In this document: positions 596 to 30,218 of the stretch, one piece after another
Layout of the letters: every line of letters begins with the position of its first letter
How positions within the stretch are numbered: the stretch's first letter is position 1
DNA from: an uncultured Bdellovibrionales bacterium
GTDB lineage: Bacteria > Patescibacteriota > Minisyncoccia > Moranbacterales > UBA2206
Direction of reading: 5' to 3'
DNA length: 64,000 nucleotides
Assembly: GCA_964538685.1 (NCBI GenBank)
Contig: CAZIFD010000002.1
Location: 13,255-77,254 of the forward strand
Notes under the pieces: generated by a model
Databases searched by the model: none
What the model saw: only the letters and a program-made list of their open reading frames with translations
Told to the model about the DNA's origin: nothing
Made by a program: the position numbers and the translations under genes

Positions 596-794
596 CTGAT
601 GGATAGAAAACTTAGTGTTTCCACTATATTATACGGCGGAAATAAAGGCAAATTGAAGAAATAAAGCTGTGCGCTTTAGCGTTTTGTGGAAAAAGTGATG
701 TGAGTGCGTAAACTTGATAAATTTTCATAAAAATGCAATACTTATTCATACAATATTGCCTAAACTTGCCAACAGCAAGCATGGCTCAAATAAT

Positions 795-950
795 CCTAGC
801 TAACAAAAACGGCCTCATGGTCGGCGCTTGTTAGCTAGGTCGGTTTTCTGAAAAGAAATCCGGGCATATTCGAAAGAATATGTCGCCTGATCCGTGAGGC
901 TTTTTTTGTTCTTTAAAAATTTAGATTAATAATTAAACCTAGCTAACAAC
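795..950 (+). promoter_or_regulatory. Structured leader upstream of ORF 951: a 12-bp-stem hairpin (795-806 / 828-839) whose arm sequence recurs at 938-949 abutting the start codon, a palindrome at 865-882, and a hairpin + T-run at 884-908
   Basis: Read directly: 'cctagctaacaa' at 795-806, its reverse complement 'ttgttagctagg' at 828-839, and 'cctagctaacaac' at 938-950 immediately before ATG 951. Also 'catattc gaaa gaatatg' at 865-882 and 'gcctgatccgtgaggc' followed by 'ttttttt' at 884-908. Confidence 0.4.
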
Positions 951-2048
951 ATGAAAAAAAATAAAAAGGAACTTCTATTTCATATAGATTCTCCAAAAGA
1001 ATTCAATGAGAAAGAAAATTTAATCAATACAAATGATAATATCCTCGCCATAACTGGATGGATTTTGATTAAAGAAGAACCAGCCAAAGTAAAGGTTAAA
1101 AACATAACAACCGGAGAAAAATATGAATCAAGAATAAAAATTGAAAGAGATGATGTAGCCAAAGCTTTTCCAAAAATACCCGAAGCAAAAAATTCCGGAT
1201 TTTTCGTAAGCATACCACTGAGAAACAAAAATGAAAAAATATCTCTGTATTGTGAGATTGATAATGAAGAAATTGTTCTTGGAGAAATTAAAACAAATTT
1301 TATTCCCAAAAACTACCTTCCCGAATTTAAAAATATCAAAAAGGGAATAAGAAAAGGAAGAAATATCTATGAGGGTTATCAAAGAGGATGGGGTTTGCAA
1401 CATGGCGATCTAATTAAAGAGATTGAAAATGACAATCTTTATAGAGAGGCTATTGAACTGTCCCGATCCAGAACAATTGTAAGAGAAGAACATCTTATGA
1501 ATATTTTCCTGATAATGAAATTTGGCCTTCCGAAAATTTCTCAGGGAGATATTATAGAATTTGGATCATATACTGGAGGAAGTGCTATTTTTATGGCTCA
1601 ACTTACCAAAAGATTACATCCAAATATTAAAGTTTATGCCCTTGATACATTTACTGGAATGCCAGAAACAGATAAATCAATAGATGCTCACAACCAAGCT
1701 GATTTCAATAATGTGAATTTACAAGAACTTAGAAACTACGCCAAAGAAATAGGATTGGATAATTTGGAATTTCATCAAGGAATGTTTGAAGATACGGCTA
1801 TTTCTATTTTGAAAAAAGCCAAAAACATTTCTTTGTCTCACATAGATTGCGATATTTATTCAGCAGTAGCTTTCTCTTATGAGGCAGTCAAAAATTATAT
1901 GGTGCCGGGAGGCTATGTAGTTTTTGATGACGCTTGCATTTCGTCTTGCATAGGAGCTACTGAGGCAGTGGAAGAATACCTTATTAAAAAAGATCAACTA
2001 CATTCAGAACAAATATATCCCCACTTTGTATTTAGAATGGGATTGTAA
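951..2048 (+). CDS. Two-domain protein: unknown N-terminal domain (~170 aa) + C-terminal TylF/MycF-like class I SAM-dependent O-methyltransferase
   Basis: C-terminal half shows macrocin-O-methyltransferase family motifs: IEFGSYTGGSAIFMA (compare E-GV-RGGS), ALDTFTGMPE (compare D-F-G-P), HIDCDIYSAV...GGYVVFDD. A strong hairpin terminator follows. Confidence 0.6.
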   Translation: MKKNKKELLFHIDSPKEFNEKENLINTNDNILAITGWILIKEEPAKVKVKNITTGEKYESRIKIERDDVAKAFPKIPEAKNSGFFVSIPLRNKNEKISLYCEIDNEEIVLGEIKTNFIPKNYLPEFKNIKKGIRKGRNIYEGYQRGWGLQHGDLIKEIENDNLYREAIELSRSRTIVREEHLMNIFLIMKFGLPKISQGDIIEFGSYTGGSAIFMAQLTKRLHPNIKVYALDTFTGMPETDKSIDAHNQADFNNVNLQELRNYAKEIGLDNLEFHQGMFEDTAISILKKAKNISLSHIDCDIYSAVAFSYEAVKNYMVPGGYVVFDDACISSCIGATEAVEEYLIKKDQLHSEQIYPHFVFRMGL

Positions 2049-2066
2049 ATAAATGTTTCAAACACT

Positions 2067-2090
2067 AAAAACCGCCAAGAGGCGGTTTTT
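2067..2090 (+). terminator. Rho-independent terminator after ORF 951..2048
   Basis: 'aaaaaccgccaagaggcggttttt': 7-bp GC-rich stem with a T-run. Confidence 0.7.
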
Positions 2091-2096
2091 AGTTGG

Positions 2097-2199
2097 CGGG
2101 CAATGTCGGTCTAGAACTTGTAATCATAAAAAAGTTTAAGGGTTTTCTAGGGATATGGCAAGAATAGAAATTTAAAAAGGTCGGGTCGCAAATTTTGAA
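2097..2199. repeat. Left copy of a ~100-bp imperfect direct repeat flanking the DUF3800/HD cassette
   Basis: 'gcgggcaatgtcggtctagaact' at 2097-2119 is identical to 3679-3701. 'ggtcgcaa(a)ttttgaa' at 2184-2199 matches 3766-3780, at the same spacing. Confidence 0.6.
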
Positions 2200-2394
2200 T
2201 GAAAATTAAGTGAAGTCTTTTAATAAATTTACTACTACCAATCTAATCATGAAATTCACCTCAAATAAAAGAAAATTCTGAAGTTATCCACAGATACTTG
2301 AAATAACTTAACAAATATACTACTATTGTCATAGAAGTAATTCCTCCTGTGTTGAAATACCGTAAGGCGTTTCGTTAAAGCAGGGGGTTTTCTT

Positions 2395-3024
2395 TTATCT
2401 GAAAAGCAGGCTTTCTTCGATAATTTTGTCTTTTATTTCTTCATAATACCCATAGTCATTTCTTTCATATTTTCTAAAAATTGCCCAACTGACAAAATCC
2501 ACTGCCTGCAGACATTTTTCCGTATGAGATGCTTTAATTTTTATTTCAATTCTCCCATTATTCCCTCTTTTCACCAGATTGTCCTTCAAATATTTTTCAA
2601 AGTTCTCCCTGATAAATTTATTCGTATCTTTTTTGTCTATATAAAGACTGATTGGCTCATCAATCCTGATAAGTCTCCTGTTATGCAACCGATCTAATAA
2701 TATGTTAGCAGTATAGTTGTATAGATAGTTTTTCTGACTTTGCAGATCTACATAAACTTTCTTTTTGTTTAAAACAACGCAGAGTACCTTCAAATCATCT
2801 AGTTCGCACAATTTCCTCAGCATCCTATGTTTTGTGATCGCATCAGAATGATAGGCATGCAACTCTCTTAGCTTGTATTTCTTCTTTAGCCCTCTCCTAA
2901 TATTTTTGATAACCTTTTCAATTTTCTTGTGATCGTTAGTCAAGACAATCGTAAAAAGAAACCATTTACTTGAAGTTTCTTTAAAACCAAGATCTCCGCT
3001 CTCGTCTAAAAATATATGCGCCAT
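2395..3024 (-). CDS. DUF3800-family protein
   Basis: N-terminus MAHIFLDESGDLG matches the hallmark DUF3800 start (hIDESG). Size 209 aa. Spacing and orientation suggest co-transcription with the HD gene upstream. Confidence 0.55.
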   Translation of the reverse strand: MAHIFLDESGDLGFKETSSKWFLFTIVLTNDHKKIEKVIKNIRRGLKKKYKLRELHAYHSDAITKHRMLRKLCELDDLKVLCVVLNKKKVYVDLQSQKNYLYNYTANILLDRLHNRRLIRIDEPISLYIDKKDTNKFIRENFEKYLKDNLVKRGNNGRIEIKIKASHTEKCLQAVDFVSWAIFRKYERNDYGYYEEIKDKIIEESLLFR

Positions 3025-3033
3025 TTTTATTTA

Positions 3034-3582
3034 CTATTTCTTTATAAACTTTTCAACCCACCTATTAAATATTTTCACCTTATCGTCACCAAACTTTAAC
3101 GCTTCAGCCCTGATCATTTCAGGACTTTTTTCTTTAGATAAAAATTCTTCGTTTTTTGTAAAGAATTTATCTGCAAAACAAACTATTTTTTCCTCTACGG
3201 AAATTGGGATCATATCCCTTTTGGGGATGGGTAACTTTTGTTTTTCAATATCTTTTATCGAAATTCCTACTCCCATATGTCTTTCACAAACTAATGCATG
3301 CTTTGGGAAACCCTCTTTTTCCAAAATTTCTCTACCCAAATATCCATGACAAATGTAAGGTTCTTTTCCGAAGCATCCAATTTCCGGAGTATTAGTCAAA
3401 AAGATCCCAATATCATGAAGCATGGCAGATTCCTCAATAAATTTTAAATCAGGATTAAGATGAGAAACATTTTTTCCAATTTCAACAGCTTTTTTAGCAA
3501 CCGCCTCACTATGTTTTACTAAAAATTTATAAGCTTTAGAATCTACCTGGTAATATTTTTGGATTATCTTTAATGGATCCAT
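3034..3582 (-). CDS. HD-domain phosphohydrolase
   Basis: HD motif ...AMLHDIGIFL..., plus downstream His/Asp residues (HGYLGREIL, CFADKF). 182 aa. Confidence 0.7.
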   Translation of the reverse strand: MDPLKIIQKYYQVDSKAYKFLVKHSEAVAKKAVEIGKNVSHLNPDLKFIEESAMLHDIGIFLTNTPEIGCFGKEPYICHGYLGREILEKEGFPKHALVCERHMGVGISIKDIEKQKLPIPKRDMIPISVEEKIVCFADKFFTKNEEFLSKEKSPEMIRAEALKFGDDKVKIFNRWVEKFIKK

Positions 3583-3678
3583 ATATTTCTATTTTAGCAT
3601 AAAACCACATTTCGGTGGCTTTGGAGATTTACCCATTTTTCGAAGTGATTAGGTCACCTTCGATACTATGAGCTTGAT

Positions 3679-3780
3679 GCGGGCAATGTCGGTCTAGAAC
3701 TTTCAGATATCAAGTATTATAAGGATTTTTTGAGATTCGTCTATACGCAGAATTTAAGGCTCCTCGGTCGCAATTTTGAA
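3679..3780. repeat. Right copy of the direct repeat flanking the DUF3800/HD cassette
   Basis: See 2097..2199. A 23-bp identical core plus a second conserved block about 85 bp downstream. Confidence 0.6.
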
Positions 3781-3916
3781 GGGCAAATGAGACACCAGAC
3801 AGCCCTTGTCTTATTTTGGAGAAATAAGACGGTAACCTGTTTCATTTAGACATTGCTACTTATCTATAAACTTTGGTAGAATATAATAGGAAATAAGCAA
3901 TTTAATCAAGTTAAAC

Positions 3917-4546
3917 ATGATATATATAAAAGAAGATTCCATTGTAGATGCTTGGAAAAAAAGCATTAAGGAGCTTTATTTAAAAGGCATAGAATCACAA
4001 AAAGGAGAATTTTATAGATTTTCACATGCTATTATTGAAATCTCAAACACAACATCTAAAGATACATATGATGAAAATTTTCCAATGTCTAAAGAAAGTA
4101 TTGATATCATTAACAATTATCTCTTAACAGGAGAAAATGAAGACAAGGTGATTCATGATTGGACAAAAATTTATAGAAACAGGCTATTTGCAAAAAAATA
4201 TAATCAAATAAAACAAATCATCGAATATCTTAGAAAAAAACCCACTGGAAAACGCGCACAAGCTTCAATTTGGAATCAAGAAGTAGATTTGTACGGAAAA
4301 ATCAGCCCATGCCTTCAATTATTGTGGTTTCAAATAATCAATGGAAAACTTGAAATGCATACCCATATGCGAGCAACGGATTGCTATGGAAAACTTCTTA
4401 TGAATATTAACGAATTTATTACATTGCAAAATTTTATTGCTAAAAAATTAGAATTAAAAAGTGGACTCTATGTTCAATTTATTGACTCACTTCATTTTAA
4501 TTCAAACGATAAAGAGCTAATAGATAATCTCCTAGAAAAAATTTAA
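3917..4546 (+). CDS. Compact thymidylate synthase-like / dNMP hydroxymethylase-like enzyme (209 aa)
   Basis: Alignable by eye to the ThyA core: RAQASIWN (ThyA RRIIVSAWN), ISPCLQLLWFQ (ThyA APCHAFFQF, catalytic Cys), NGKLEMH (DGKLSCQ), RATDCYGKLLMNINEFITLQ (RSCDVFLGLPFNIASYALL), DSLHFNSND (DTHLYSNH). It lacks the N-terminal segments of full-length ThyA. Confidence 0.65.
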   Translation: MIYIKEDSIVDAWKKSIKELYLKGIESQKGEFYRFSHAIIEISNTTSKDTYDENFPMSKESIDIINNYLLTGENEDKVIHDWTKIYRNRLFAKKYNQIKQIIEYLRKKPTGKRAQASIWNQEVDLYGKISPCLQLLWFQIINGKLEMHTHMRATDCYGKLLMNINEFITLQNFIAKKLELKSGLYVQFIDSLHFNSNDKELIDNLLEKI

Positions 4547-4634
4547 AGCCCATGCACAGTTTGTGCTACATGAGCTTTTGTTGGTTATTTTGGTTGTTTT
4601 CAATAAGCTTTCACATCCCCACAATTGGGAAATA

Positions 4635-5192
4635 TTAGAGGCTGTTCAGGTAGTGCTCGTAGATGACTTCGGCAAGTTCCTGATCGCTGCCCTCATGCGT
4701 CGTTACGCACAAGCTGAAATATCCATCGTAGAAGCCCTGATGAAATGCTTGTAGCTCATCTCTGGCTTCAGTAATTCTAGATCCATCCTTATCGCGATTG
4801 TCTTTTGCCAATCTTTTTTCCAATTCCTCGAGAGAGGGTGGAAGTAGATAGACTACACACAATCGGCCTGCAAACGCTTTGGTCATTATGCCTAACCGAT
4901 TCACTGGCCAATCCAAGACTGGAAAGCGTAATTCGTTTAGGGCTGTGGTAATGGGGACGATCGGAGTTGCGTATCGTATGCCATACTTCTCGTTTACCGT
5001 GAGAAATTCTCCGCGTTTAATCATCTCGTTCATGGCGTCATCAGAGATGCAGATTTTGTCTGTTTCACCATCTCTGAGCGTTCTTGTCATATACGGAGAA
5101 ATGTACACAAAGCGCTTATCTAGTTTACAAAGTTGCACTATGATAGTGCTTTTTCCGACGCCTGAAGCACCCAGCATATGTGCTTGCCCCAC
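4635..5192 (-). CDS. Guanylate kinase-like nucleoside-monophosphate kinase
   Basis: Walker A GASGVGKST; SPYMTRTLRDGE resembles Gmk S-TTR-PR-GE; LLPPSLEELEKRL resembles Gmk ILPPS-ELDRRL. The local GC is visibly higher than in flanking DNA. Confidence 0.7.
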   Translation of the reverse strand: MGQAHMLGASGVGKSTIIVQLCKLDKRFVYISPYMTRTLRDGETDKICISDDAMNEMIKRGEFLTVNEKYGIRYATPIVPITTALNELRFPVLDWPVNRLGIMTKAFAGRLCVVYLLPPSLEELEKRLAKDNRDKDGSRITEARDELQAFHQGFYDGYFSLCVTTHEGSDQELAEVIYEHYLNSL

Positions 5193-5241
5193 CCTCTCAG
5201 TGCGCGCACAAAAGTCCGCCCACTATGCGGACGGCTCCCAT

Positions 5242-7461
5242 TTAATTCTGAGTCGCAGTATTAGAAAACTGTTCTTCAAGTATTTGATAATGTTCGGGAA
5301 ACACAGTTTTCATCATCTCAAGCAAATACTTAATATTTTTTTGTGCCTCTGGCGCTAACGAAGGATCAAAACCATCACCAGTGATATGTGATTGATCGTT
5401 GGTAAACTTATAGATCGCAGTTTTTTTATCCTCGTCAAAAACAAGTTTTTCCATTTTCTTGTACGGATTTTCTCCATTCGGTACTCTAAACATTAAAAAT
5501 GTATCAAGGACTTTTCTGGCAACATTCGGTATATGGTAAACAGAGGCAATGCTCCCATCAGTTTCAAATGTATATAAAACCTTAAACAAGTAGTGGTACT
5601 CACTCTCATGGTCTCTCAATTCTTTATCGAGTTCTGAAATAAACGCTGTTCTTCTATCGGTTGTAGAATACTGATTTTTAATCATGTAATACTTATGACC
5701 GCTAGTTCTATTTAGCCAATTCAAGATAAGTTTCAGAAAATTGAAGTTGTGTGTAAAAATGAAAACTTGTTTTGCATCTTTTACCGCATTCTTTAGAAAG
5801 GCAAAGGCTTGAAAAAGTGAATTTGAATCAAGACTTGAGATAGGATCGTCTACAACTATTATGCCATTCGCTACATCAAAATTTTGGTCTTTCAAATGCA
5901 CAACAAAATACACAAATGCAATAGCTGTTTTCTCACCTTCGCTTAAATTCTTTGCAATCACGCCACTACGCTTGACAACATAACCACCCTCAGGAGTTAC
6001 TTCGAAAGTAATCTCATTTCTACCTAAAAATGTTTGTAGTCGTTTATTAAGTGTATCGCATGCTTTATGTTCAGACGAAATCTTGTTTTTGTTTTCAGTT
6101 ATTTTTTTCTTTAAGGCTACAATTCCAACAAAAGCTGACGGTTCATCACCATTTTGAAGTTTTGAAATTTCTTTTTCACACTCTTTAATTTCCGAATCAA
6201 AGGTTTTTACTTCATCAAAAATTTCACTCAAATGGTGTGCTTTCAATAATTCAACGGCTCTGTCTTTCTCTGTTTGGAAATTATCACTCTTTTGATTATG
6301 TTGCTCTATGGTCTCATTTACAGAATCAACGGAAGATTGAAAATTGTTGCTCAATGATCTTGAAAAAGTCACTTCCTCTGTAGTCTTTTGTTTTTTGGAA
6401 TTCAAAATTTCAACCATAGCCGACAATTCGGCGCAGTAGTTATCTTTTTCTTGATTGTAAGTTATAGATCGTGATGTAAACGATGTCTGTAAATCGGTAT
6501 AGAATTGAGCTTTGTTTGGCAATTGAATTGCTTTAATCGTCTGAATAGACTGCTGGAGATTAGTGATTTTCGTGTCTATTTTCTCTTTTAACTTTTTATC
6601 TGCTTCATTGAAATGACCAAGCAATGCTTCAATTCTACCTTTCGGCAAATCTGAACCACAGAATTCGCATTGCTCACTCTCTTTTGTGTGTAAAGTTAGT
6701 CCATGTTCAACCCACGCTGAAATCTCTTGACTCTCGGCAAGTCTACTAATGACATTTATTTCAACGGTTTCTTTGCAAATACCTATAACTTCATCATAGA
6801 CACCAGACAAATCTAGGTCTGAAGTAAGATTGATTTTTGTTATTTTATCTTTCTGCTCCTGTTTAATGACTGCCTGTTGTTTAGCAACCTCATCGGCACT
6901 TAAAATTTTCTTTTCTGTGATAGATTCAAAATCTTTTTCAGCGTCTGGTTTTCTATAATTTCTTGTAGATGATCCAACGAGATTTGCTCCAATAACTTTT
7001 GCTACTTCGGTAAATTTGTTGGCTTTATCAGATTCTTTTCTTGTTTTCTCGGTTTCTTTGGCGCTTTTTTGAGTTTCAAGATTGGCTAAAGTTTCTTCAT
7101 CAGTTTTGATCTTATCGGCAATCTCTTTATTTTCCTCTCCGAGAATAAAAATAGGGTTTGCCTTGCCACTCACTAACTGCACATTTTTCTGTATGTAGTC
7201 CTGATTGAAAACTCGTATTTTTTGATTGAATTGAGAGTTTTCTTTTACAGTTCCACTCTCGTGTTCAATATCATATTCTAAATCGGAAAACTCTAGCGAA
7301 TTACCGTCTTCAAGACACGCAAATAATTTTGATAAGGTTGTTTTTCCTGAGCCATTCCAACCATAAAAAAGATTGTATTTATCAAAATCATTCAAATTAC
7401 TATCCCATGTGTAATCAGAGAATAATCCAAGATTTTTAATTTTTTTTAGCTTCTTTATCAT
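5242..7461 (-). CDS. RloC/AAA_13-like ABC ATPase with a coiled-coil insert and a CxxC zinc-hook-like motif (candidate anticodon-nuclease-type abortive-infection protein)
   Basis: Walker A GWNGSGKTT. Long Lys/Glu-rich coiled coil containing CEFCGSDLP. ABC signature LSEGEKTAIAF. Walker B IIVVDDPISSLD. C-terminal ~200 aa domain. It overlaps the 3' end of the upstream MTase gene by 26 bp. Confidence 0.55.
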   Translation of the reverse strand: MIKKLKKIKNLGLFSDYTWDSNLNDFDKYNLFYGWNGSGKTTLSKLFACLEDGNSLEFSDLEYDIEHESGTVKENSQFNQKIRVFNQDYIQKNVQLVSGKANPIFILGEENKEIADKIKTDEETLANLETQKSAKETEKTRKESDKANKFTEVAKVIGANLVGSSTRNYRKPDAEKDFESITEKKILSADEVAKQQAVIKQEQKDKITKINLTSDLDLSGVYDEVIGICKETVEINVISRLAESQEISAWVEHGLTLHTKESEQCEFCGSDLPKGRIEALLGHFNEADKKLKEKIDTKITNLQQSIQTIKAIQLPNKAQFYTDLQTSFTSRSITYNQEKDNYCAELSAMVEILNSKKQKTTEEVTFSRSLSNNFQSSVDSVNETIEQHNQKSDNFQTEKDRAVELLKAHHLSEIFDEVKTFDSEIKECEKEISKLQNGDEPSAFVGIVALKKKITENKNKISSEHKACDTLNKRLQTFLGRNEITFEVTPEGGYVVKRSGVIAKNLSEGEKTAIAFVYFVVHLKDQNFDVANGIIVVDDPISSLDSNSLFQAFAFLKNAVKDAKQVFIFTHNFNFLKLILNWLNRTSGHKYYMIKNQYSTTDRRTAFISELDKELRDHESEYHYLFKVLYTFETDGSIASVYHIPNVARKVLDTFLMFRVPNGENPYKKMEKLVFDEDKKTAIYKFTNDQSHITGDGFDPSLAPEAQKNIKYLLEMMKTVFPEHYQILEEQFSNTATQN

Positions 7462-8245: not shown

Positions 8246-8247
8246 AA

Positions 8248-9369: not shown

Positions 9370-9370
9370 A

Positions 9371-10198: not shown

Positions 10199-10203
10199 AA
10201 TAA

Positions 10204-10488: not shown

Positions 10489-10518
10489 GTGTGCAAAACA
10501 GTATTTTTATGAAGCGTC

Positions 10519-12394: not shown

Positions 12395-12421
12395 GGTGTT
12401 TGGGTCGGGGTCTAAAACAAG

Positions 12422-12472: not shown

Positions 12473-12510
12473 CTATACTTGATTATTTATGGTCTGATAT
12501 GAAGTTTTGA

Positions 12511-17086: not shown

Positions 17087-17087
17087 G

Positions 17088-17636: not shown

Positions 17637-17641
17637 ATTAC

Positions 17642-20964: not shown

Positions 20965-20966
20965 AT

Positions 20967-21260
20967 CTACTTTTTCAGCAGTCTGTTTCTAGGTGGTTTT
21001 TCTTGTTTAATAATTTTCTTTTCCAATATCTCAGCCTTTTCGACAGTTCCCGTTTCAATAACTCTAAAATTTGTACCACCTTTAAACTGACCTTTATGCT
21101 CGTAAACTCTATCTCCAAGACGACCCGCCTTTGCTTTTCCAACATAAAGCAACTCGTCTTTAGCATTTACTATTTTATACACACCAGCACTTTTACCAGA
21201 CAATTTTTCTACGTTTGTCTTGGTGATTTGTCTCTTTGGACTGAAGCTTTGTTTCTTCAT
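20967..21260 (-). CDS. Small standalone GIY-YIG nuclease-domain protein
   Basis: GVYKIVN...LLYVGKA...RLGDRVYEH...EKAEILEKKII...PPRN matches the GIY-YIG core (GIY, YIG, Arg, His/Glu, C-terminal E..LI..P.N). 97 aa. Confidence 0.7.
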   Translation of the reverse strand: MKKQSFSPKRQITKTNVEKLSGKSAGVYKIVNAKDELLYVGKAKAGRLGDRVYEHKGQFKGGTNFRVIETGTVEKAEILEKKIIKQEKPPRNRLLKK

Positions 21261-21347
21261 AGATTTTTTATTAATTTATTATTTACCCTAACTTCCCAAC
21301 TCAAAGATCTTGCGTCAGACCTTTTTTTGAGTTGAGCAGTTTAGATT

Positions 21348-23271: not shown

Positions 23272-23275
23272 AATG

Positions 23276-24058
23276 TTATTGATTGTCTTGCGACCTTAAT
23301 GCTTCCGCAAGTTCTCCTGGGGAAAATATTTTTATTTTCAATCCGATATCGTCAAATTCCTTTTGGTTTTGATTGATTCTGTTTAAAATAGTTTCTTTAT
23401 CTAGTGTCAGAAAATAGTCTAGTTCAGATTTTTCTGCTTGAAAAATATGTTCCGCATCGTCAATATCGAAAAATGATTTTAGTCTTGAAAAAAGCGGGTT
23501 CTCCACACTACCTCCTCCTCCGAAAGTTGAAGTCCCGAAGGTAACTGAACCAAAACAGGCAGATGTATGCTCAATTAAATTTGCCGACGGCACATTAGTA
23601 ATCAAATTGCAAAAGAATAAAATTAAACCTTTCTTTTTTTCATCATCTATTTTTTGTATTTCTTCCTTGGCTTTGGATGAAGTAAAAAATTTTATTTCAT
23701 CCTTTTGATATCGTTCAGAAATCTCAGCTAATGATTGAATTTCTTTTTCTTTGACCCTAAAGTCATTTATCCTCGAAATAATATTTGTATCCAAATAAAC
23801 TTTTGGTGTATTATCAGTTTTTTCATATTCAATCTCAATATGTCCCAATCTGGAATGATCATAATAAATCGCATTAACAACCTTTAAAAAATTCTTTATG
23901 CCAGCAGAATTACTGTGTTCTAGAATGTCACCCTCGACTATGGGCAAGGTCACATCATTAATATAAATTTTGTTTTGCACGCTAGCTTTAATATTTTTTA
24001 TCCTGCTGGAATCTTTTTTTATTAAAACTAAATTGTCTGTCATGAAATGATCCATCAT
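23276..24058 (-). CDS. Two-domain protein: unknown N-terminal domain (~85 aa) + PIN-like nuclease domain
   Basis: VYLDTNIISRIN (PIN beta-1 with the first Asp), a later Glu, DIDDAEHIF and FLTLDK acidic positions. A Gly-rich linker (GTSTFGGGGS) is also present. Confidence 0.45.
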   Translation of the reverse strand: MMDHFMTDNLVLIKKDSSRIKNIKASVQNKIYINDVTLPIVEGDILEHSNSAGIKNFLKVVNAIYYDHSRLGHIEIEYEKTDNTPKVYLDTNIISRINDFRVKEKEIQSLAEISERYQKDEIKFFTSSKAKEEIQKIDDEKKKGLILFFCNLITNVPSANLIEHTSACFGSVTFGTSTFGGGGSVENPLFSRLKSFFDIDDAEHIFQAEKSELDYFLTLDKETILNRINQNQKEFDDIGLKIKIFSPGELAEALRSQDNQ

Positions 24059-24864
24059 ATATTTTTATTCCCATTTACTTTTTGAGCTATGTCTGCAATT
24101 GCCTTTTTAACTAAGGATTCTTTTTTATTCTTCACATCTTCCTCAATTTTCTGATCAAGAATAAGGATGATCGATAGCTTTAGGGCAGGAAAATAGGCAA
24201 GGCATTCCTCTTCACTTAATTCATGAACTCCTTTGCTTAAAATTCCATAAACTACTTTCATTTCCACCAACTGACTTGGGAGGTAATCTTTTAGAAAATC
24301 AACTTTTTCATCCATTCTTTTTTTCAAGAAATCATCATCAGAAATTCCTAACTTATCTTTATGCTCTTTATATGTATTCCAAATAACATTTTCAAAAATA
24401 CGTCTTAAATACACGAGAGATCCTGCTCCGGCGCCGTGTGCCATGAGGCCAATTGATTTTTTTAAGTCATGCAGATCCTGCTTGGGCAACACCTTATCAT
24501 ATTTTTTACCAAGTTCAGCAAACTGTATGTCAGCAATAGAAGGAAACTGTCCTACTTTCACAATGATTTCATTATTATCATACACGAAAAATCTTAGAAC
24601 ATCATTGCTTTTTCTTTTACAAGTTAAGGTAATTTTATAAAAATTATTAAAACTTGATTCATATTGTCCATTAACACGACAGGAGTAAATTTTGTATGTA
24701 GTATCAATTCCATTTGCTGCACTGTATGCATCTACATCACCTTCGTGAATATCCTCCTCTAATTGCTCTTTTTTTATAAAATCGTAAAGAGGAGTTTCAA
24801 AATAAAAGTCGTGCTTATTAACATTTTTTAATTCTTCTGCTGGCTGTTCTTTTTCTTCTGGCAT
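24055..24864 (-). CDS. Hypothetical protein (269 aa), translationally coupled to the downstream PIN gene by a 4-bp overlap
   Basis: No confident motif. The C-terminal half (LVYLRRIFENVIW ... SKGVHELSEEE) is faintly reminiscent of HEPN/DUF4145-type domains found in RM loci. Confidence 0.3.
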   Translation of the reverse strand: MPEEKEQPAEELKNVNKHDFYFETPLYDFIKKEQLEEDIHEGDVDAYSAANGIDTTYKIYSCRVNGQYESSFNNFYKITLTCKRKSNDVLRFFVYDNNEIIVKVGQFPSIADIQFAELGKKYDKVLPKQDLHDLKKSIGLMAHGAGAGSLVYLRRIFENVIWNTYKEHKDKLGISDDDFLKKRMDEKVDFLKDYLPSQLVEMKVVYGILSKGVHELSEEECLAYFPALKLSIILILDQKIEEDVKNKKESLVKKAIADIAQKVNGNKNI

Positions 24865-24890
24865 ATTTTTAGCAAATTAGTTTTTTAGAG

Positions 24891-26195
24891 TTATAGCAAA
24901 ACTACGGACTGTTTTGCTCGCGCAACACAAACCCCGTCTTTTATTGCATAGCATTCAGCATAATGTCTGCCTTTATATTTTGTGCTTTCGGGGACATTTC
25001 TTGTTTGATCACAAGTAATTTCTCCTCTTGGTTCCGTGCAATTGTCATCATTTTTTACCTTCCAATTGTAAGTACATCCATCTATGCGATGTAGTCTTTT
25101 GAATTTCAGGTATCTGCCAGAATCAATCACCCCTTGATTATTTAATGGCCTTTGGGTATTGCCAGCTTTATCTGTGATATCGGCAGATATAGAAAATTGA
25201 GAATATTGTGGGTCAGTAAAAGTTGGTATCTTTTTATCAAATAAATATTCCTCTGCAAGCGATTTTCTCTTATGCAGATTTACAGTCAACAAAAAATCAA
25301 TACTATCTTTTTCGTCCAAATTTTCAAGTTTTATCAAAAAATAATCTCGCACTTGTTTAATTTTCTCTTTTTGCTCTGGGGTAAATTTTTCAAGGTAATC
25401 ATCAATAAATTTATCGCCATTCGCCCTATCCTTTATTTGATTCGGATTGTTTATAATATCTGGCAAATCGACGAAAAATTTAAATATCGCATCGAATACG
25501 CATGTGTCAGAAAATTGTTGAAATAATTTTGTGATGACTTGCTCAAGATGAAACGACTTCAATTTCAATTTCTCATCGAAATCATTTAGGTTATTTTTCC
25601 ACTTTTTAACAAGTTTTACGACCTTCCTAAAGTCTTGATTTTGTCCCACCAGTGTAGCAACCTTGATATAGCCCCTAGGATCAGATTTTATCCAGTCATG
25701 AATATTATTAGAATCCCAAGTCATACTTTTTCTAAAATCATGATTTTTTTCTTTTAAAATCTCCGGAACCATATAGGTATCCTGCTGAAATTCGTTTTTC
25801 CCATAAGAATATGCAGGAACAATATCTACGGAAAATACTTCTTCATCATCTTTAGAATATATAACTGTAACTGAGTGAGCCTGTAGCGATGAACTTACAG
25901 TAAGACTTGTCGGATTCACATAATCACTATTAATTTGACTAAACAATTTTTTAAGCGTTTCCGATGGATCATGACTATTTTCACTCCATTGACCTAAAAT
26001 GTACAAAATATCAAGATCATGAATAGGCGTAATGGAAGTAAAGCGAGGATATGAACCAATTTGAATACAGTTATCTATTCCAAACAAATCATTAAATGAT
26101 TGATAAATTTTGTTTACCAAGTTCTGTTCAGAGGTACTCGGGGATAGACTCCTTGCAAACTCCCTCAATTTTGAATTGAATTTATCTTTTTTCAT
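24891..26195 (-). CDS. Pol-beta-superfamily nucleotidyltransferase of the CD-NTase/SMODS type (candidate CBASS-like cyclase)
   Basis: IGSYPRFTSITPIHDLDILYI matches the GS-x9-13-[DE]h[DE]h pattern. FSVDIVPAYSY matches the third acidic residue in an hDhhPa strand. Cys-rich C-terminal tail. 434 aa. Confidence 0.5.
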   Translation of the reverse strand: MKKDKFNSKLREFARSLSPSTSEQNLVNKIYQSFNDLFGIDNCIQIGSYPRFTSITPIHDLDILYILGQWSENSHDPSETLKKLFSQINSDYVNPTSLTVSSSLQAHSVTVIYSKDDEEVFSVDIVPAYSYGKNEFQQDTYMVPEILKEKNHDFRKSMTWDSNNIHDWIKSDPRGYIKVATLVGQNQDFRKVVKLVKKWKNNLNDFDEKLKLKSFHLEQVITKLFQQFSDTCVFDAIFKFFVDLPDIINNPNQIKDRANGDKFIDDYLEKFTPEQKEKIKQVRDYFLIKLENLDEKDSIDFLLTVNLHKRKSLAEEYLFDKKIPTFTDPQYSQFSISADITDKAGNTQRPLNNQGVIDSGRYLKFKRLHRIDGCTYNWKVKNDDNCTEPRGEITCDQTRNVPESTKYKGRHYAECYAIKDGVCVARAKQSVVLL

Positions 26196-26727
26196 AACTT
26201 GTGCTAAGCAAGGTAGTTATAATATCATTCATGAGGCGGCCGCGCATATTAACAACCGTGGTAAATTGTTCATTATTGATCGCTTTCATCATTTCCTTGG
26301 AAATAACATTTTCTGGCGGAGAGAATTCCGGAAAATAGAATATAAATCCTGTGGCAGCATTTTTATACGAAAGTATTTTTTTTATATCATCCTCGCTAAA
26401 GGATTGATAATGAACCAGCACTAGGCTCTCATTCTTTATTTTAGTTAATGATTGATTGGTGATTTGCTCAATATTTTTTTCTCTAAAAACCCCGGTATCA
26501 ATAAGATCAGTCTTAATATTTCTATAAGTCTCATCATTAGCCGCAATTTTTATTTTTCTGGTCCATCTGCCAAATCCAAGTCTTAAAAATAATGGGAAGA
26601 TGCCCATAGACCAACTTATAATTGCCCAAATAAATAATCCTATCGCAAAAATAGTTGTTAAAACACCAATAATGTCTATAAAAAGTTTAATAAAATTTAA
26701 CAAAGTCATAAATTTATTTGATCCCAA
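26182..26727 (-). CDS. Two-TM-helix membrane protein with a ~125-aa cytoplasmic domain (candidate Cap15/SLATT-like CBASS effector)
   Basis: Two N-terminal hydrophobic helices (LLNFIKLFIDIIGVLTTIFAIGLFIWAIISWSMGIFPLFL), then a soluble domain. Overlaps hsdM (14 bp) and the NTase gene (14 bp). Confidence 0.4.
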   Translation of the reverse strand: MGSNKFMTLLNFIKLFIDIIGVLTTIFAIGLFIWAIISWSMGIFPLFLRLGFGRWTRKIKIAANDETYRNIKTDLIDTGVFREKNIEQITNQSLTKIKNESLVLVHYQSFSEDDIKKILSYKNAATGFIFYFPEFSPPENVISKEMMKAINNEQFTTVVNMRGRLMNDIITTLLSTSYEKR

Positions 26728-28414
26728 GATCTTTTAAATAATTATCTACTTTTTTATCTGCTATATCTCGTTCTTTTTCAATTTCTTTCAGTTCCTTCCA
26801 AGCAGATTTCACATCCACAATTTCCTCAACGTCTCCGTTTTCTACGTACCGACGGACATTTAGGTTGAAGCCATTCTCTTCGATTTCCTTGAGAGGAACC
26901 ACTTTGGCATATTTCTCGATGTTGCGATATCCCTCATAAGCCGAAACTATCTTTTCAATATCTTTTTTCCTGAGACGATTCTGATTTTTTCCTTCTTCAA
27001 AGTCCTTTTCCGCATCGATAATCAGAATCTTGTTCCTATGCGTCTCCGGCTTGTTTTTATTGAAAATAATGATCGCTACCGGAATGCCAGTCCCATAAAA
27101 AAGTTTAGGAGGAAGTGCGATAATAGCCTCAATCAAATCATTTTTGATGATTTGTTCACGGATAGCTCCTTCTGCTCCGCCACGAAAGAGAACGCCATGA
27201 GGAAGTAATATTCCGGCTCGTCCGTTTTCGTTCATTGATTTGATCATGTGCAAAACAAAAGCATAATCAGCCTTTTTCTCTGGCGGCATTTCATAACCAG
27301 AGAGTCTGCCATATTTATCAGACTTGAACATTTCAGATTCCCACTCTTTGATTGAGTAGGGTGGGTTTGCAACGCAGATATCGAATGTCTTGAGTGAACC
27401 GTCCAGGTTTAAGAATTTCGGATCAGCCAAAGTATCTCCACGCTGGATATCAGCACTATCAAGTCCGTGTAAAAACATATTGATCTTCGCAATCGCAAAA
27501 GTCCCGATGTTTATTTCTTGTCCATAAAGATAAAGCGAGCGTGCTTTTCTCTCGCCAGCTTTTTCCTTGAGATAATGATAGGCTTCCAAAAGAAAACCAC
27601 CTGATCCAACCGTCATGTCATAAATATGATCTTTCTCGTGAGGTTTTAGGATTTGAATGATAACTCGCTCGGTTTCGCGCGGAGAATAAAATTCACCACC
27701 TTTTTTCCCAGCATCGGCCGCAAATTGCTCAATGAGGTATTCATAAGCATCGCCGAGCAGATCCGAACTGATATAGCTATCTCCAAAATTGTACTGTGAA
27801 AAATGATTAACCAGCCTTTGCAGTGTTTCATTTGGAAATTTATCTTTATTGGCAAAATCAAGATCATCAAAAATTTTGTCGAGCTTTGGGCTATTGGCGT
27901 TTGTCAGTTTGTCAAAAATTTCATTAAGTCTCTGTCCGATTCCTCCGGCTTGTTTTTGAATAACTTCCCAGCGACAATCTTTGGGGACTTGGAAGCGGTG
28001 ATTGTAATCAGCGCGTGCGATTGTTTCATCATGAAATTCATCCAGCACTTTTTTATATTCTTCATCCCAAGTATCGCTGATACGTTTATAAAAGAGTAAA
28101 CCGAAAATATATTTTTTGTAATCTGAGCTGTCTATTTTTCCTCTTAAAATATCAGCACTTCTCCAAAGGAATTGTTTGAGGTGAGCCAAGGTCATTTTTT
28201 CGCCAGTCCCGCTAATTTCACTGAGAACTGCCCCCATCTTTTTATCGATAAATTTTTCCAGATCTTCTATTCTATATTTTCTGTCTGCCCTGGTTCCGAC
28301 TCGCAGCGGCGTTATCTTTCCCTCTTTTTCCCAATTGCGAAGAGTGTCCTTGTTTATTCCAAGAAGTTCGGATGCCTGTTTAATTGAGAGTAATTTTGGC
28401 GAATTTTTGCTCAT
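26714..28414 (-). CDS. hsdM: Type I RM N6-adenine methyltransferase subunit with an N-terminal MerR/excisionase-type HTH extension
   Basis: N-terminus LLSIKQASELLGINKDTLRNWEKEGKITP (HTH). HsdM N-domain. Motif I DMTVGSGGFL. Motif IV VANPPYS. 566 aa. Confidence 0.9.
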   Translation of the reverse strand: MSKNSPKLLSIKQASELLGINKDTLRNWEKEGKITPLRVGTRADRKYRIEDLEKFIDKKMGAVLSEISGTGEKMTLAHLKQFLWRSADILRGKIDSSDYKKYIFGLLFYKRISDTWDEEYKKVLDEFHDETIARADYNHRFQVPKDCRWEVIQKQAGGIGQRLNEIFDKLTNANSPKLDKIFDDLDFANKDKFPNETLQRLVNHFSQYNFGDSYISSDLLGDAYEYLIEQFAADAGKKGGEFYSPRETERVIIQILKPHEKDHIYDMTVGSGGFLLEAYHYLKEKAGERKARSLYLYGQEINIGTFAIAKINMFLHGLDSADIQRGDTLADPKFLNLDGSLKTFDICVANPPYSIKEWESEMFKSDKYGRLSGYEMPPEKKADYAFVLHMIKSMNENGRAGILLPHGVLFRGGAEGAIREQIIKNDLIEAIIALPPKLFYGTGIPVAIIIFNKNKPETHRNKILIIDAEKDFEEGKNQNRLRKKDIEKIVSAYEGYRNIEKYAKVVPLKEIEENGFNLNVRRYVENGDVEEIVDVKSAWKELKEIEKERDIADKKVDNYLKDLGIK

Positions 28415-28690
28415 AGTTATGATTTACAAAATTTATGTTTTTTCTTACCTTTTCATATGTTAGCACGACAACTTTAATCTTGTCAATACTTTTTACAAAA
28501 ATTCTGATGATTTCATAGGTTATTATATTTAAGTGCTATTGAGCAGAAAGACACTCTTTTTGTAAGTTTATGAGGATTTAAGGCTATTTAAAGCCAATAA
28601 GTTATCAACAGGTAACCTACTTGGGACGCTCTGGACTCTTTCATGAGAGTGCGTCATTCATTGAGTTGTAACAAATAAGACCAAAATCCT

Positions 28691-30019
28691 ATGGATTACC
28701 CAAAAACCAACCAAATAGGGGCGATTACCAAATCAGAGCCAATTGCGATGCCTGTCCGATATTGTCTCTACGCCCGCAAAAGTACCGAGAGTGAGGAGCG
28801 CCAAATACTCTCTATTGATTCCCAGATCAAGGAGATGCTTCAACTGGCAGAGCGTGAAAGCTTGGAGATAGTTGAAATAAAGCGCGAATCGCATAGTGCC
28901 AAGGAAACAGGGCAAAGACCGATTTTTAATGAAATTGTTGAAGAAATAAAACAAGGAAAATTCAACGGTATTCTGACTTGGGCACCGGATAGAATTTCCA
29001 GAAATGCTGGAGATCTTGGAAAAATAGTAGATCTGATGGACAGCGGAGCTTTAAAAGAAATCAGAACTTATGGGCAACGATTTACTGATTCGCCAAATGA
29101 AAAATTTCTACTAATGATTTTGGGATCTCAAGCTAAACTAGAAAATGATAATCGTGGCATCAATGTAAAGCGAGGACTTCGTGCCAGATGCGAAATGGGA
29201 CTATGGCCAACGGTGGCACCGCTTGGATATCTCAATCAAAGGCACATGGACAAAAAATGCCAGCTGATTCAGGATCCACAAAGAGCGTCAGTTATAAAAA
29301 AGATATTTGAAAAAGTAGCTTATGAACATTATTCGGGCAGGAAAATATATCATTGGTTAAGATTTGAGCTAAATTTCTATACCAGAGGAAATAAGCCACT
29401 GACATTAGGTGGGGTGTATCGGGTTCTTGAAAATCCTTTCTACTATGGAGTCTTTGAATACCCAGTCAAAAGCGGAAATTGGTATACCGGAAAACATGAA
29501 CCGATAATCACCCAGGAGATATTCGAAAAAGCCCAGGCCTGGCTAAAAAGAGATAAAATTGTCCGGGAAAATAAAGAGTTCGCCTTTACTAAATTGTTCA
29601 CCTGCGGATATTGCGGATCGGGAATATCCGCCGAAGAAAAATACAAACAACTGAAAGACGGTACACACGCCAGATATATCTACTATTCCTGCTCGAGAGC
29701 CAGAGACCGGCATTGCAAAAACAAATATATCCGCGAGGAAGAATTGATCACCGAGCTTCTAAAAATAATCGATCAAATGAATATCAATGAACTAGGAATG
29801 AGGCAGAAATTGGAAGATGAAATCAATCGCTTCAATATTTTTCAAAAATCAGTGATGGGAGAAAAACACAAAATTCAAAATACCAAAGATACAGATATCC
29901 GAAATTATGCCAAATACCTACTTAAAGAGGGGTCGGTATCGGAAAAAAGAGAACTTCTCGGAAATCTAAGATCGAGGATAATATACAAAGATAAAAAACT
30001 GGAGCTGGTGAAAGAATAG
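28691..30019 (+). CDS. Large serine recombinase (integrase), adjacent to tRNA-Ser
   Basis: RYCLYARKSTESEE (catalytic Ser motif), resolvase and recombinase domains, Cys-rich zinc ribbon (CGYCGSG ... YYSCSRARDRHC). 442 aa. Ends 112 bp from the tRNA-Ser 3' end. Confidence 0.85.
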   Translation: MDYPKTNQIGAITKSEPIAMPVRYCLYARKSTESEERQILSIDSQIKEMLQLAERESLEIVEIKRESHSAKETGQRPIFNEIVEEIKQGKFNGILTWAPDRISRNAGDLGKIVDLMDSGALKEIRTYGQRFTDSPNEKFLLMILGSQAKLENDNRGINVKRGLRARCEMGLWPTVAPLGYLNQRHMDKKCQLIQDPQRASVIKKIFEKVAYEHYSGRKIYHWLRFELNFYTRGNKPLTLGGVYRVLENPFYYGVFEYPVKSGNWYTGKHEPIITQEIFEKAQAWLKRDKIVRENKEFAFTKLFTCGYCGSGISAEEKYKQLKDGTHARYIYYSCSRARDRHCKNKYIREEELITELLKIIDQMNINELGMRQKLEDEINRFNIFQKSVMGEKHKIQNTKDTDIRNYAKYLLKEGSVSEKRELLGNLRSRIIYKDKKLELVKE

Positions 30020-30029
30020 AAAACAAAAA

Positions 30030-30058
30030 ACAGCGGAGAAAAATTCGCTGTTTTTTTG
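30030..30058 (+). terminator. Rho-independent terminator after the recombinase gene
   Basis: 'acagcggagaaaaattcgctgt' hairpin followed by 'ttttttt'. Confidence 0.65.
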
Positions 30059-30131
30059 TTCAATTTTTTATGTCTTCGGGTCGCTCATTCGTCTCGATAG
30101 AATGGGTCTATCCGATAAAAAATTGTCGATG

Positions 30132-30218
30132 CGGAGAGAGGGAGATTCGAACTCCCGAGACCCGTTAAGATCTACTTGCTTTCCAAGCAAGCGCACTCGA
30201 CCACTATGCGATCTCTCC
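30132..30218 (-). tRNA. tRNA-Ser (anticodon GGA), class II with long variable arm; no encoded CCA
   Basis: Reverse complement GGAGAGATCGCATAGTGGTCGAGTGCGCTTGCTTGGAAAGCAAGTAGATCTTAACGGGTCTCGGGAGTTCGAATCTCCCTCTCTCCG. 7-bp acceptor stem. Anticodon stem CTTGC/GCAAG with loop TTGGAAA. Long variable arm. T-arm GGGAG-TTCGAAT-CTCCC. Confidence 0.85.

Follow-up and report, generated by a model that had tools for sequence, protein, structure and literature searches.

Locus and boundaries of the insertion

A block of 29.5 kb separates dnaG from a tRNA-Ser(GGA) gene in the DNA stretch analysed here (64,000 nucleotides of contig CAZIFD010000002.1, assembly GCA_964538685.1; hereafter the window); it holds restriction-modification (RM) genes, nuclease genes, a nucleotidyltransferase gene, terminase-like genes and two genes for large serine recombinases (LSR1 and LSR2). 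This gene content had been noted in a preliminary description drawn up from the sequence alone and was verified by Pfam, PADLOC, PHROGs and NCBIfam matches, as were the housekeeping flanks named there, dnaG on the left and tRNA-Ser(GGA) followed by pyk on the right, by Pfam, ARAGORN and Rfam. The left flank consists of the N-terminal 198 codons of dnaG (2-595, minus strand; Pfam Zn_ribbon_DnaG and DNAG_N; 66-71% identical to DnaG of the related loci L002 and L006). On the right, the tRNA-Ser(GGA) gene regarded as the integration target (30131-30218, minus strand; ARAGORN, Rfam) is syntenic with the pyk-adjoining tRNA-Ser(GGA) of L002, L003, L006, L093 and L112 and is followed by pyk (30307-31731, minus strand; Pfam PK and PK_C; 73% identical to the pyk of L002). 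The pyk protein was 73% identical to that of the metagenome-assembled genome (MAG) JBMOKR01 and 54-56% identical to those of Moranbacteria and Parcubacteria MAGs, and the window genome is assigned to the Patescibacteria (candidate phyla radiation, CPR), near the Moranbacteria.

The comparison with relatives that lack the insertion, which the preliminary description had proposed, revealed unoccupied sites in two loci with pyk, tRNA-Ser and dnaG: in L002, the closest species representative, the gene order is pyk, tRNA-Ser(GGA), dnaG with 72 bp from the tRNA gene to the dnaG start, and in L003 it is pyk, ppsA, tRNA-Ser, dnaG, rpoD with approximately 250 bp between the tRNA gene and dnaG. In the blastn alignment to L002, window positions 107-655 corresponded to 4349-3813 and positions 30130-32658 to 3783-1310; homology in the dnaG upstream region (596-655) stopped at 655, the left edge of the insertion, which thus comprises 656-30129 (29,474 bp) in place of a 30-bp spacer of L002. 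Because relatives show the empty site, the 29.5-kb block is a genuine insertion between dnaG and tRNA-Ser and not a chance pattern. The pyk/dnaG locus was encountered in four states: empty (L002, L003), with an LSR1 unit only, with an LSR2-type element only (L093), and with both (window). The LSR1-only state is exemplified by L112 (MamF, pyk, tRNA-Ser(GGA), LSR1 unit, two genes, dnaG, rpoD), and the LSR1 unit likewise lies beside tRNA-Ser and pyk in L121 and L143. Other genes occur at this position as well, namely two unrelated genes in L006 (one of them histidine-kinase-like) and, in addition to the LSR2-type element, a PMT glycosyltransferase gene in L093.

The two large serine recombinases

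The assignment of LSR1 (10820-12394, plus strand) and LSR2 (28691-30019, plus strand; with its conserved upstream region 28573-30019) to the large serine recombinases, made already in the preliminary description, was borne out by the presence of all three characteristic domains in each protein (Pfam Resolvase, Recombinase and Zn_ribbon_recom; PF00239, PF07508, PF13408), with the R-x-S serine motifs YTRKST and YARKST visible in the translations. Both proteins matched PHROG 95 "integrase" (1e-78 and 1e-63); the nearest solved structure was the SPbeta integrase (E=4e-12). The two recombinases were 35% identical to each other and at most 28% identical to integrases of deposited phage genomes. Since LSR1 and LSR2 homologues are 80-92% identical across CPR lineages while the pyk proteins of these lineages are only 45-56% identical, the comparison indicates horizontal spread of the recombinase genes. 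The stop codon of LSR2 lies exactly 112 bp from the 3' end of tRNA-Ser, as had been stated before, and the nucleotide homology of its upstream region to L090, L093 and L096 begins at 28573-28600. No candidate for a recombination directionality factor was identified, and a literature search for serine recombinases in Patescibacteria/CPR gave incidental co-mentions only.

Element E3: conserved ends, backbone and variable slots

The right part of the block (12320-30130), designated E3, has the organization of a complete element, consisting of a conserved left end, a ParB-methylase gene, terminase-like genes, a cargo slot, LSR2 and, directly against the tRNA gene, a conserved tail. The left end, class C (12320-12448, plus strand, 129 nt), starts at a GCGG core; it is conserved in L102, L142 and L093 and weakly in L220 (E=0.006). 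The palindrome behind LSR1 to which the preliminary description had drawn attention is an imperfect nested one (~12422-12471) in the distal part of class C. A first variable slot (12511-13810, minus strand) contains two hypothetical genes (235 and 174 aa) without Pfam or PHROG match and is occupied by non-homologous genes in L090, L093 and L220. The backbone comprises a conserved non-coding stretch (13815-13927, plus strand; 80% nucleotide identity to L090) and, all on the plus strand and supported by Pfam, PHROGs and NCBIfam, genes for a ParB-N6/N4 methylase (14230-15585), a small-terminase-like protein (TerS-like; 15578-15979) and a short form of a large-terminase-like ATPase (TerL-like; 15989-17086, 365 aa). 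The second slot (17073-28572, genes 17088-28414, minus strand; Pfam, PADLOC) holds the defence-related cargo described below. The right-end tail (30068-30130, plus strand; ...GGGTCGC...CCGATAAAAAATTGTCGAT; tail profile E=1.5e-18) ends at the GCGG core common to the tRNA 3' end and is a putative P arm of attR.

Relatives of E3 were retrieved by exact-protein look-ups of LSR2 homologues and by a scan of viral contigs with the TerL-like protein. The closest counterpart, L090, encodes a recombinase 94% identical to LSR2, preceded by genes for a ParB-methylase (450 aa), a protein of 133 aa, a TerL-like protein of 368 aa and, on the minus strand, a UvrD helicase; window positions 13815-17072 and 28573-30166 are 78-83% identical to L090 at the nucleotide level (backbone 78-80%; blastn), with 11.5 kb of RM and CBASS (cyclic oligonucleotide-based antiphage signalling system) genes between the conserved parts in the window versus a 2-kb helicase region in L090. 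The order ParB-methylase, TerS-like, TerL-like, variable minus-strand cargo and LSR also exists in L090, L096, L220, L221, L222 and L225. The cargo slot is filled by a 280-aa gene in L096, which has a KAP NTPase gene left of the backbone, and by a KAP NTPase gene in L220; a CBASS with SAVED lies left of the backbone in L222. The TerL-like genes at 15989-17086 of the window and at 4801-5907 of L090 encode proteins of 365-368 aa and the relatives in L096, L220, L222 and L225 proteins of 430-484 aa, those of L096, L222 and L225 with matches to Terminase_6C or Terminase_6N.

The 112-bp stretch behind LSR2 is conserved. Its last ~60 nt (...GGGTCGC...CCGATAAAAAATTGTC..), the tail, lie directly against a tRNA-Ser gene (GGA or GCT), at the 3' end of the latter, in the window, L090, L093, L096, L224 and L225; L220, L221 and L222 share the backbone, tail or tRNA not being among the features compared or found there. 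A profile built from the tails of the five other loci matched the window solely at 30068-30135 (E=1.5e-18). In three of the six tail loci (window, L090, L093) a spacer of 112 bp, with the tail inside it, lies between the end of the LSR2-type gene and the tRNA gene, whereas in L096, L224 and L225 extra genes of 2.9-8.7 kb separate LSR and tail, yet the tail abuts tRNA-Ser. Because the conserved tail occupies this position in the window and in five other independent loci, the location of LSR2 beside the tRNA gene is well explained by site-specific targeting. The left end was found in several contexts: on the left side of the small element of LSR2 type that occupies the dnaG-pyk locus of another relative, L093, adjoining LSR1-type arms in L102 and L142 (the latter also with a ParB-methylase gene ~4 kb away), and as the above-mentioned weak match ~1 kb upstream of the ParB-methylase gene in L220. 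The GCGG core is common to all junctions: tail/GCGG/tRNA, right LSR1 arm/GCGG/class C, and spacer/GCGG/tRNA in the empty site of L002. E3 is interpreted as a complete integrative element whose tail and class C would together make up attP, the crossover lying within or close to GCGG.

Other properties of these sequences were inspected as well. Local alignment of an inverted copy of the E3 tail, considered as a half-site, to 600-1000 and 10000-14300 gave no convincing match. Class C and class B of the LSR1 unit (see below) retain a short resemblance to a T-loop; as pseudo-tRNAs they were called neither by ARAGORN, with lowered thresholds too, nor by Rfam (E≤10), and the class C region gave no signal when folded as RNA (z = -0.34). 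The non-coding stretch 13815-13995 contains a 12-bp long-range stem (gataccacactc at 13871, gagtgtggtatc at 13977) that encloses a hairpin; its possible roles in the element include those of a regulatory RNA, an origin or a site of packaging. In L224 (9375-9602) two tandem tRNA-Ser genes were called with the anticodons GCT and ACT, and a tRNA-Ser(ACT) call also lies next to the LSR1 arm of L169; the unusual ACT anticodon in L224 may reflect a miscall or a variant copy.

The LSR1 unit

In one reading of the preliminary description, with an element spanning about 0.6-12.5 kb, LSR1 would be the integrase of that element, a view that has to be abandoned: the gene is part of a self-contained unit of approximately 1.8 kb (10513-12319, left extent approximate, plus strand) with inverted repeats and 84-88% nucleotide identity to other copies. 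The unit consists of the conserved upstream stretch class B (~10519-10706, plus strand; recognized by homology among copies), the left arm IR-L (10707-10811, plus strand), the recombinase gene and the right arm IR-R (12215-12319, plus strand), both inverted repeats being 105 nt long. In the window copy the complementarity of the arms is 84%, and a core of 56 nt pairs perfectly. The arms of four distinct copies (L082; the P0008 copy on L083, L086 and L088; L087), ~1400 nt apart, measure 120-138 nt and are 94-100% complementary. The nucleotide homology of the other copies to the window copy stops exactly at 12319, and the LSR1 open reading frame (ORF) reads ~75 nt beyond this end to 12394; the variable lengths of the LSR1 proteins result from such annotated ORFs that read out of the unit. 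On the other side class B reaches ~165-190 nt past the left arm, where the homology between copies ceases, and as homology ends both there and at the arm end, the unit has a size of ~1.8 kb and the recombinase is its sole gene. Class B itself comprises a palindromic stretch by the arm and two GC-rich hairpins with C-rich loops; RNAalifold predicted three hairpins with one covarying pair only among 14 sequences, and they may be structures of either RNA or DNA.

More than 100 LSR1 homologues with 82-92% identity are known under the names Pacebacteria, Liptonbacteria, Shapirobacteria and Minisyncoccia, many of them on contigs of just 1.7-3 kb, and a metagenome scan with the LSR1 arm end detected at least 120 loci. 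What comes after the arm end (...TTTTGGCGG) in these loci is either class B or a tRNA-Ser gene, with GGA, CGA, TGA or GCT as anticodon; the TGGCGG at the arm/tRNA junction is the complement of the CCGCCA end of the tRNA. Dozens of metagenome contigs show a fusion of this kind between one arm and the CCA end of tRNA-Ser, and in L082 the right arm and the tRNA-Ser(GGA) 3' end overlap. The flanks on the class-B side are unrelated between copies and include genes for a copper ATPase, ABC transporters and RM systems as well as dnaG. With ends shared among the copies, unrelated flanks and four tRNA-Ser isoacceptors occupied across contigs, the LSR1 unit is, as far as such sequence comparisons allow a judgement, a self-contained and widespread mobile element located at tRNA-Ser genes.

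The orientation of the recombinase segment was deduced for 76 informative arm junctions: 72 had the standard arrangement (LSR 3' end toward the tRNA gene, 5' end toward class B) and four were flipped (L087, L105, L127, L131), the flipped segment being co-directional with and downstream of the tRNA gene. L087 encodes a protein identical to P0008 of the standard copies L083-L086. Since both orientations were found, including that with the identical protein in L087 and L083-L086, the recombinase segment evidently inverts in nature, and the unit shares the hallmark of invertible switches, inverted repeats around a segment present in both orientations; candidate agents of the inversion are LSR1 itself and RecA. 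Arms without a nearby recombinase gene were observed next to tRNA-Ser genes in L122, L150, L153, L159 and L170, as solo arms of ~32-105 nt and a fold-back remnant in L153; they are decayed or non-autonomous derivatives of the LSR1 unit. In L083 (4150-4510) the right arm is followed by a ~20-nt 3' fragment of tRNA-Ser, ~170 nt of other sequence and a second, inverted class B copy, a layout that suggests a rearrangement between two LSR1 units.

The left part of the block

The segment next to dnaG (656-2095) is additional relative to L002 and carries no mobile signature. It contains a LOOT RNA (757-884, plus strand; Rfam RF03000, 60.4 bits, full-length model) and a TylF-like methyltransferase gene (951-2048, plus strand; Pfam TylF); a terminator with GCGG at 2066-2099 resembles the B arm/spacer of the L002 empty site in the junction alignment. 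The 9-bp motif "agctaacaa" was considered as an att site and rejected: of its three left-hand copies, two (799-807 and the reverse complement at 829-837) form the arms of one hairpin within the LOOT RNA match; the right-hand copy is located at 30286-30294 (not 30276-30284), beyond the tRNA gene on the pyk side. The LOOT RNA is not found in the corresponding region of the relatives L002, L003, L005, L006 and L007, and a literature search on this RNA returned nothing relevant.

Segment E1 (2096-3678, minus strand) contains a DUF3800 gene (2395-3024) and an HD-domain gene (3034-3582; Pfam) and is bracketed by a 24-nt perfect direct repeat (GCGGGCAATGTCGGTCTAGAACTT) at 2096 and 3679. The copy at 2096 has a weak partial match to the E3-type left end (nhmmer E=0.1, 2097-2165), and E1 may be a further element of this type. 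Segment E2 (3679-10512, minus strand) starts with an E3-type left end (3679-3799) that matches the class C profile over its full length (nhmmer E=3.4e-9); no recombinase and, with the tail profile, no recognisable tail were found in it, and it looks like another E3-type element devoid of these two features. As tail-like right ends of E1 and E2 were sought, the five-tail profile matched only 30068-30135, and a likeness at 3650-3678 noted by eye was withdrawn. The genes of E2 encode a thymidylate-synthase-like protein (3917-4546, plus strand; Pfam) and, on the minus strand, a guanylate-kinase-like protein (4635-5192; Pfam), the AAA_13 protein of the PADLOC candidate system PDC-S06 (5242-7461; 5e-253), an N4/N6 methylase (7436-8245; Pfam N6_N4_Mtase), a Dam-type methylase (8248-9369; Pfam MethyltransfD12), a TdeIII endonuclease (9371-10198; Pfam RE_TdeIII) and a C protein (10204-10488; Pfam HTH_3, PADLOC control protein 2e-18). 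Endonuclease, methylases and helix-turn-helix (HTH) C protein together represent a type II RM system with control protein.

Cargo of E3

The cargo of E3 is encoded on the minus strand and combines a type I RM locus with a CBASS. It begins with a gene for a YgjP-like peptidase (first gene of the block 17088-28414; Pfam), followed by hsdR (17642-20557; Pfam HSDR_N/SWI2_SNF2), a weakly annotated HEPN-like gene (20554-20964), a GIY-YIG gene (20967-21260; Pfam), an unannotated hypothetical gene (21348-22094), hsdS (22072-23271; Pfam Methylase_S), two unannotated hypothetical genes (23276-24864), the gene of the CBASS cyclase (a SMODS nucleotidyltransferase, 24891-26195; PADLOC PDLC00785 1e-165, full length; Pfam SMODS and AGS_C), that of the CBASS 1TM effector (26182-26727; PADLOC PDLC00664 2e-50) and hsdM (26714-28414; Pfam HsdM_N/N6_Mtase, with an N-terminal MerR/HTH_17 domain). 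All three subunit genes of a type I RM system are hence present in one locus, and seven other genes interrupt the operon: the CBASS pair and two hypothetical genes between hsdM and hsdS, and the hypothetical, GIY-YIG and HEPN-like genes between hsdS and hsdR. Cyclase and effector genes, which overlap by 14 nt, stand side by side without Cap2/Cap3 or HORMA genes, an arrangement that points to a type I CBASS. The five hypothetical or weakly annotated ORFs inside the RM operon are candidate defence genes, and the cargo of the island as a whole would serve defence. The 3' end of hsdS is duplicated (21293-21356 and 22106-22169; 64 nt, 77%), the copies bracketing the ORF 21348-22094, as if a gene cassette had entered an hsdS gene or taken the place of part of it.

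Two observations concern regions other than the island. Within the window the GC content drops to 0.29-0.31 at 38000-46000, far under that of the remainder, and in L006, a related Parcubacteria genome, a group I intron (20405-20616; Rfam RF00028, 56.7 bits) is located ~1.7 kb downstream of dnaG.

Origin of the block: a probable stacked array at tRNA-Ser

We consider it probable that the block 656-30129 arose as an array, in which integrative elements gathered at a single attachment site, the 3' terminus of the tRNA-Ser(GGA) gene in the chromosome, each newcomer being inserted between the tRNA gene and the earlier occupant. The youngest element, next to the tRNA gene, would then be E3: its tail (30068-30130) and left end (12320-), once joined, would form an attP that LSR2 would recombine with the 3' end of tRNA-Ser, by a crossover within or close to the common GCGG. 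The LSR1 unit would have been positioned against the tRNA gene before, and E3 would have integrated between the two. This is argued by the junction in the window, where IR-R is joined at GCGG straight to the E3 left end and the tRNA gene now follows the E3 tail, the product to be expected from such an insertion; the order of arrival and the position of the crossover are inferred. The unusually diverged arms of the window LSR1 copy (84% versus 94-100% complementary in the fetched copies) are compatible with an old, sidelined copy. E1 and E2, further left, would represent recombinase-less remains or passengers. The tandem accretion of two elements suggested in the preliminary description was correct insofar as the block is composite with a boundary just after LSR1 (12319/12320); the number has to be revised, because the additional element left end at 3679 implies more than two units. 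The features by which tRNA-targeting islands are usually recognized are largely present, i.e. unoccupied sites in L002 and L003 and the same element family with conserved ends at the same kind of tRNA gene in independent genomes. A distal direct repeat is missing: the 26-mer of the tRNA 3' end has no second copy within three mismatches; since the recombinases are serine recombinases, and not those of typical tyrosine-integrase islands, such a tRNA-fragment repeat would not be expected.

Several points weigh against this interpretation. Alignment did not reveal any half-site in clear dyad symmetry with the tail, and the dyad TATC-N13-TCGA ... TCGA-N13-GATA of tail and left end was read by eye and without a statistic. 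LSR1 and LSR2 are presumed, not observed, to catalyse the integration events, and neither an excised circle nor a free attP-bearing element nor a precise excision product was seen. The contexts of occurrence are derived from metagenome assemblies, and the flipped LSR1 junctions could in principle be assembly chimeras over the 120-nt repeat, even though they were seen on four independent contigs. The status of E1 and E2 as former elements is based on left-end similarity that was significant for E2 only, and 656-2095, lineage-specific or mobile, may have been the native neighbour of the tRNA gene when accretion began. Finally, the GC content of the island does not differ from that of the remainder of the window (0.347 versus 0.352). 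The compositional contrast which the preliminary description had named as a test is therefore absent in GC and was found as a modest deviation in tetranucleotide usage only (correlation to the core 0.91-0.96 inside versus 0.97-0.99 outside the island); GC contrast is, however, a poor criterion of refutation, because the elements circulate among similarly AT-rich CPR genomes.

The equal GC content would also fit a vertically inherited, lineage-specific variable region with the recombinases as bystanders, as would the unrelated genes that relatives carry between tRNA-Ser and dnaG (L006, L093). This explanation is extremely improbable in view of the empty sites, which contradict it, of the conserved element ends located exactly at the tRNA gene, of a backbone that is 78-83% identical in unrelated contigs at a different tRNA-Ser isoacceptor, and of the lower tetranucleotide correlation of the island. 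The designation "degraded prophage" in the preliminary description implies phage ancestry. In such a scenario a temperate phage would have been integrated at tRNA-Ser by its serine integrase, lost its structural genes and acquired the RM genes later. Terminase-like and ParB-methylase genes are indeed typical of a phage packaging region, two related loci are catalogued in IMG/VR, and the TerL-like protein is short and matches solely the ATPase part of terminase profiles. The same short form is nevertheless conserved in L090, and the nine loci of the family (L090, L093, L096, L220, L221, L222, L224, L225, window) are all small, none of them containing portal, capsid or tail genes, while the same backbone order and ends are kept around differing cargo. 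No structural or lysis genes or remnants of them were detected in the island, where PHROGs besides the recombinases match only the TerS-like, TerL-like and ParB-methylase genes, and the 50,697 deposited phage genomes contain distant relatives at best (TerL identity at most 32%). A decayed prophage is thus very unlikely, and ParB-methylase, TerS-like and TerL-like genes are better described as the conserved backbone of a family of small elements.

The same lack of structural genes alongside terminase-like genes, the small size of the elements (~4-18 kb) and the placement of cargo between conserved modules would be in line with phage satellites resembling phage-inducible chromosomal islands (PICI), which reside at tRNA-Ser, excise via LSR2 and use their own TerS/TerL and ParB-methylase for packaging in helper capsids. 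Of the features of PICI-like satellites, integrase and terminase-like genes are present in E3 and a replication module was not recognized; Pfam and PHROG scans revealed neither replication nor helper-interference genes, a helper phage is not known, the nuclease part is missing from the short TerL, and L093 and L224 have no terminase module in the available sequence (the L224 contig ends 1.9 kb upstream of LSR). A satellite nature of the E3-type elements, which would be compatible with the stacked array, is hence possible but doubtful.

A further alternative concerns LSR1, which might act mainly as DNA invertase or switch and not as integrase: with the arms as substrates, the flip would switch the gene between an ON position, downstream of the tRNA-Ser promoter and in the same direction, and an OFF position convergent with it, or would regulate neighbours, e.g. 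the divergent RM control-protein gene. The long, near-perfect inverted repeats ~1400 nt apart in four distinct copies, the four flipped among 76 junctions, including L087 with the identical protein P0008, and the position of the unit beside an HTH/C-protein RM cassette in both the window and L083 speak in favour of such a role. Yet the inverted segment holds the recombinase gene alone, the flanks on the class-B side are wholly different between copies, the unit is clearly mobile (84-88% nucleotide identity between unrelated genomes, always at tRNA-Ser), and RecA-mediated inversion across 120-nt perfect repeats would produce flipped copies as well, so that we regard a predominant invertase function as rather unlikely. 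More speculative still, and to be given less credence than the invertase role, is the idea that the LSR1 unit represents a new kind of minimal mobile element, in which an LSR gene between 120-nt identical arms is permanently docked on tRNA-Ser CCA ends across the CPR and possesses an internal attP-like copy (arm, palindromic class B and two conserved hairpins); by inverting itself the unit would tie the expression of its recombinase to transcription that reads through from the tRNA promoter, and it would be a phase-variable gatekeeper or landing pad for islands such as E3.

Comparison with known systems

Mobile elements and defence islands of the CPR are poorly described, and the present locus defines, to the base, the ends of two element families together with their target, and offers an empty site and several states of occupancy. 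On this basis integration can be tested by experiment and islands can be annotated across thousands of CPR genomes; for genome engineering, too, serine integrases whose target is short, conserved and ubiquitous are of practical interest. The cargo slots could be used to catalogue anti-phage systems of the CPR (CBASS inside type I RM, PDC-S06, KAP NTPases and several uncharacterised genes). The part of the locus most worth following up is the LSR1 unit.

Among known systems the array comes nearest to the composite islands of staphylococcal cassette chromosome mec (SCCmec) and to the tycheposons treated below. It resembles the SCCmec islands in the use of large serine recombinases (Ccr) and of a single chromosomal site where an RNA-related housekeeping gene has its 3' end, in tandem stacking, in the presence of recombinase-less passengers beside complete elements and in adaptive cargo. 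SCCmec, however, targets rlmH/orfX and carries antibiotic resistance, whereas the array described here targets tRNA-Ser and carries anti-phage defence, has a CPR/Patescibacteria host and a ParB-methylase and terminase-like backbone, and encodes only distantly related proteins. Prophages with serine integrases (SPbeta, phiC31, Bxb1, A118 type) share the three-domain recombinase and the location of the integrase gene at the element end by the att junction; they are complete phages, mostly in protein-coding genes, in contrast to the elements without structural genes at a tRNA 3' end observed here.

With the Hin/Gin/Cin switches and invertons the LSR1 unit has in common a segment that is bracketed by inverted repeats and found in both orientations; the Hin/Gin/Cin arms are ~26-34 bp long and are served by a small serine recombinase, while the LSR1 arms have 120 nt, the enzyme is a large one, the invertible segment is the recombinase gene itself, and the unit is mobile and docked to a tRNA gene. 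Tn4451/Tn5397 (TnpX/TndX) and insertion sequence (IS)-like elements are likewise small, LSR-moved and present in many copies across genomes, at which assemblies break; Tn4451/Tn5397 have no long inverted repeats at their ends and insert at loosely defined dinucleotides, unlike the 1.8-kb LSR1 unit, which contains the recombinase only and is specific for tRNA-Ser CCA ends.

The tycheposons of Prochlorococcus (bioRxiv 10.1101/2020.12.28.424599) correspond to the present elements in their tRNA specificity, in the existence of cargo or satellite-like (terS-bearing) forms, in the formation of tandem islands by specific tRNA genes and in the determination of the island by the integrase type. Of 937 tycheposons, 910 use tyrosine recombinases and leave partial tRNA repeats (bioRxiv 10.1101/2020.12.28.424599), whereas both families described here use large serine recombinases, with no tRNA fragment repeat found and no replication genes recognized. 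The array differs from SCCmec and tycheposons by the combination of serine recombinase and tRNA-Ser target, by its CPR hosts, by a methylase/terminase backbone without structural or replication genes, and by the LSR1 unit with its bracketing inverted repeats and invertible recombinase segment.

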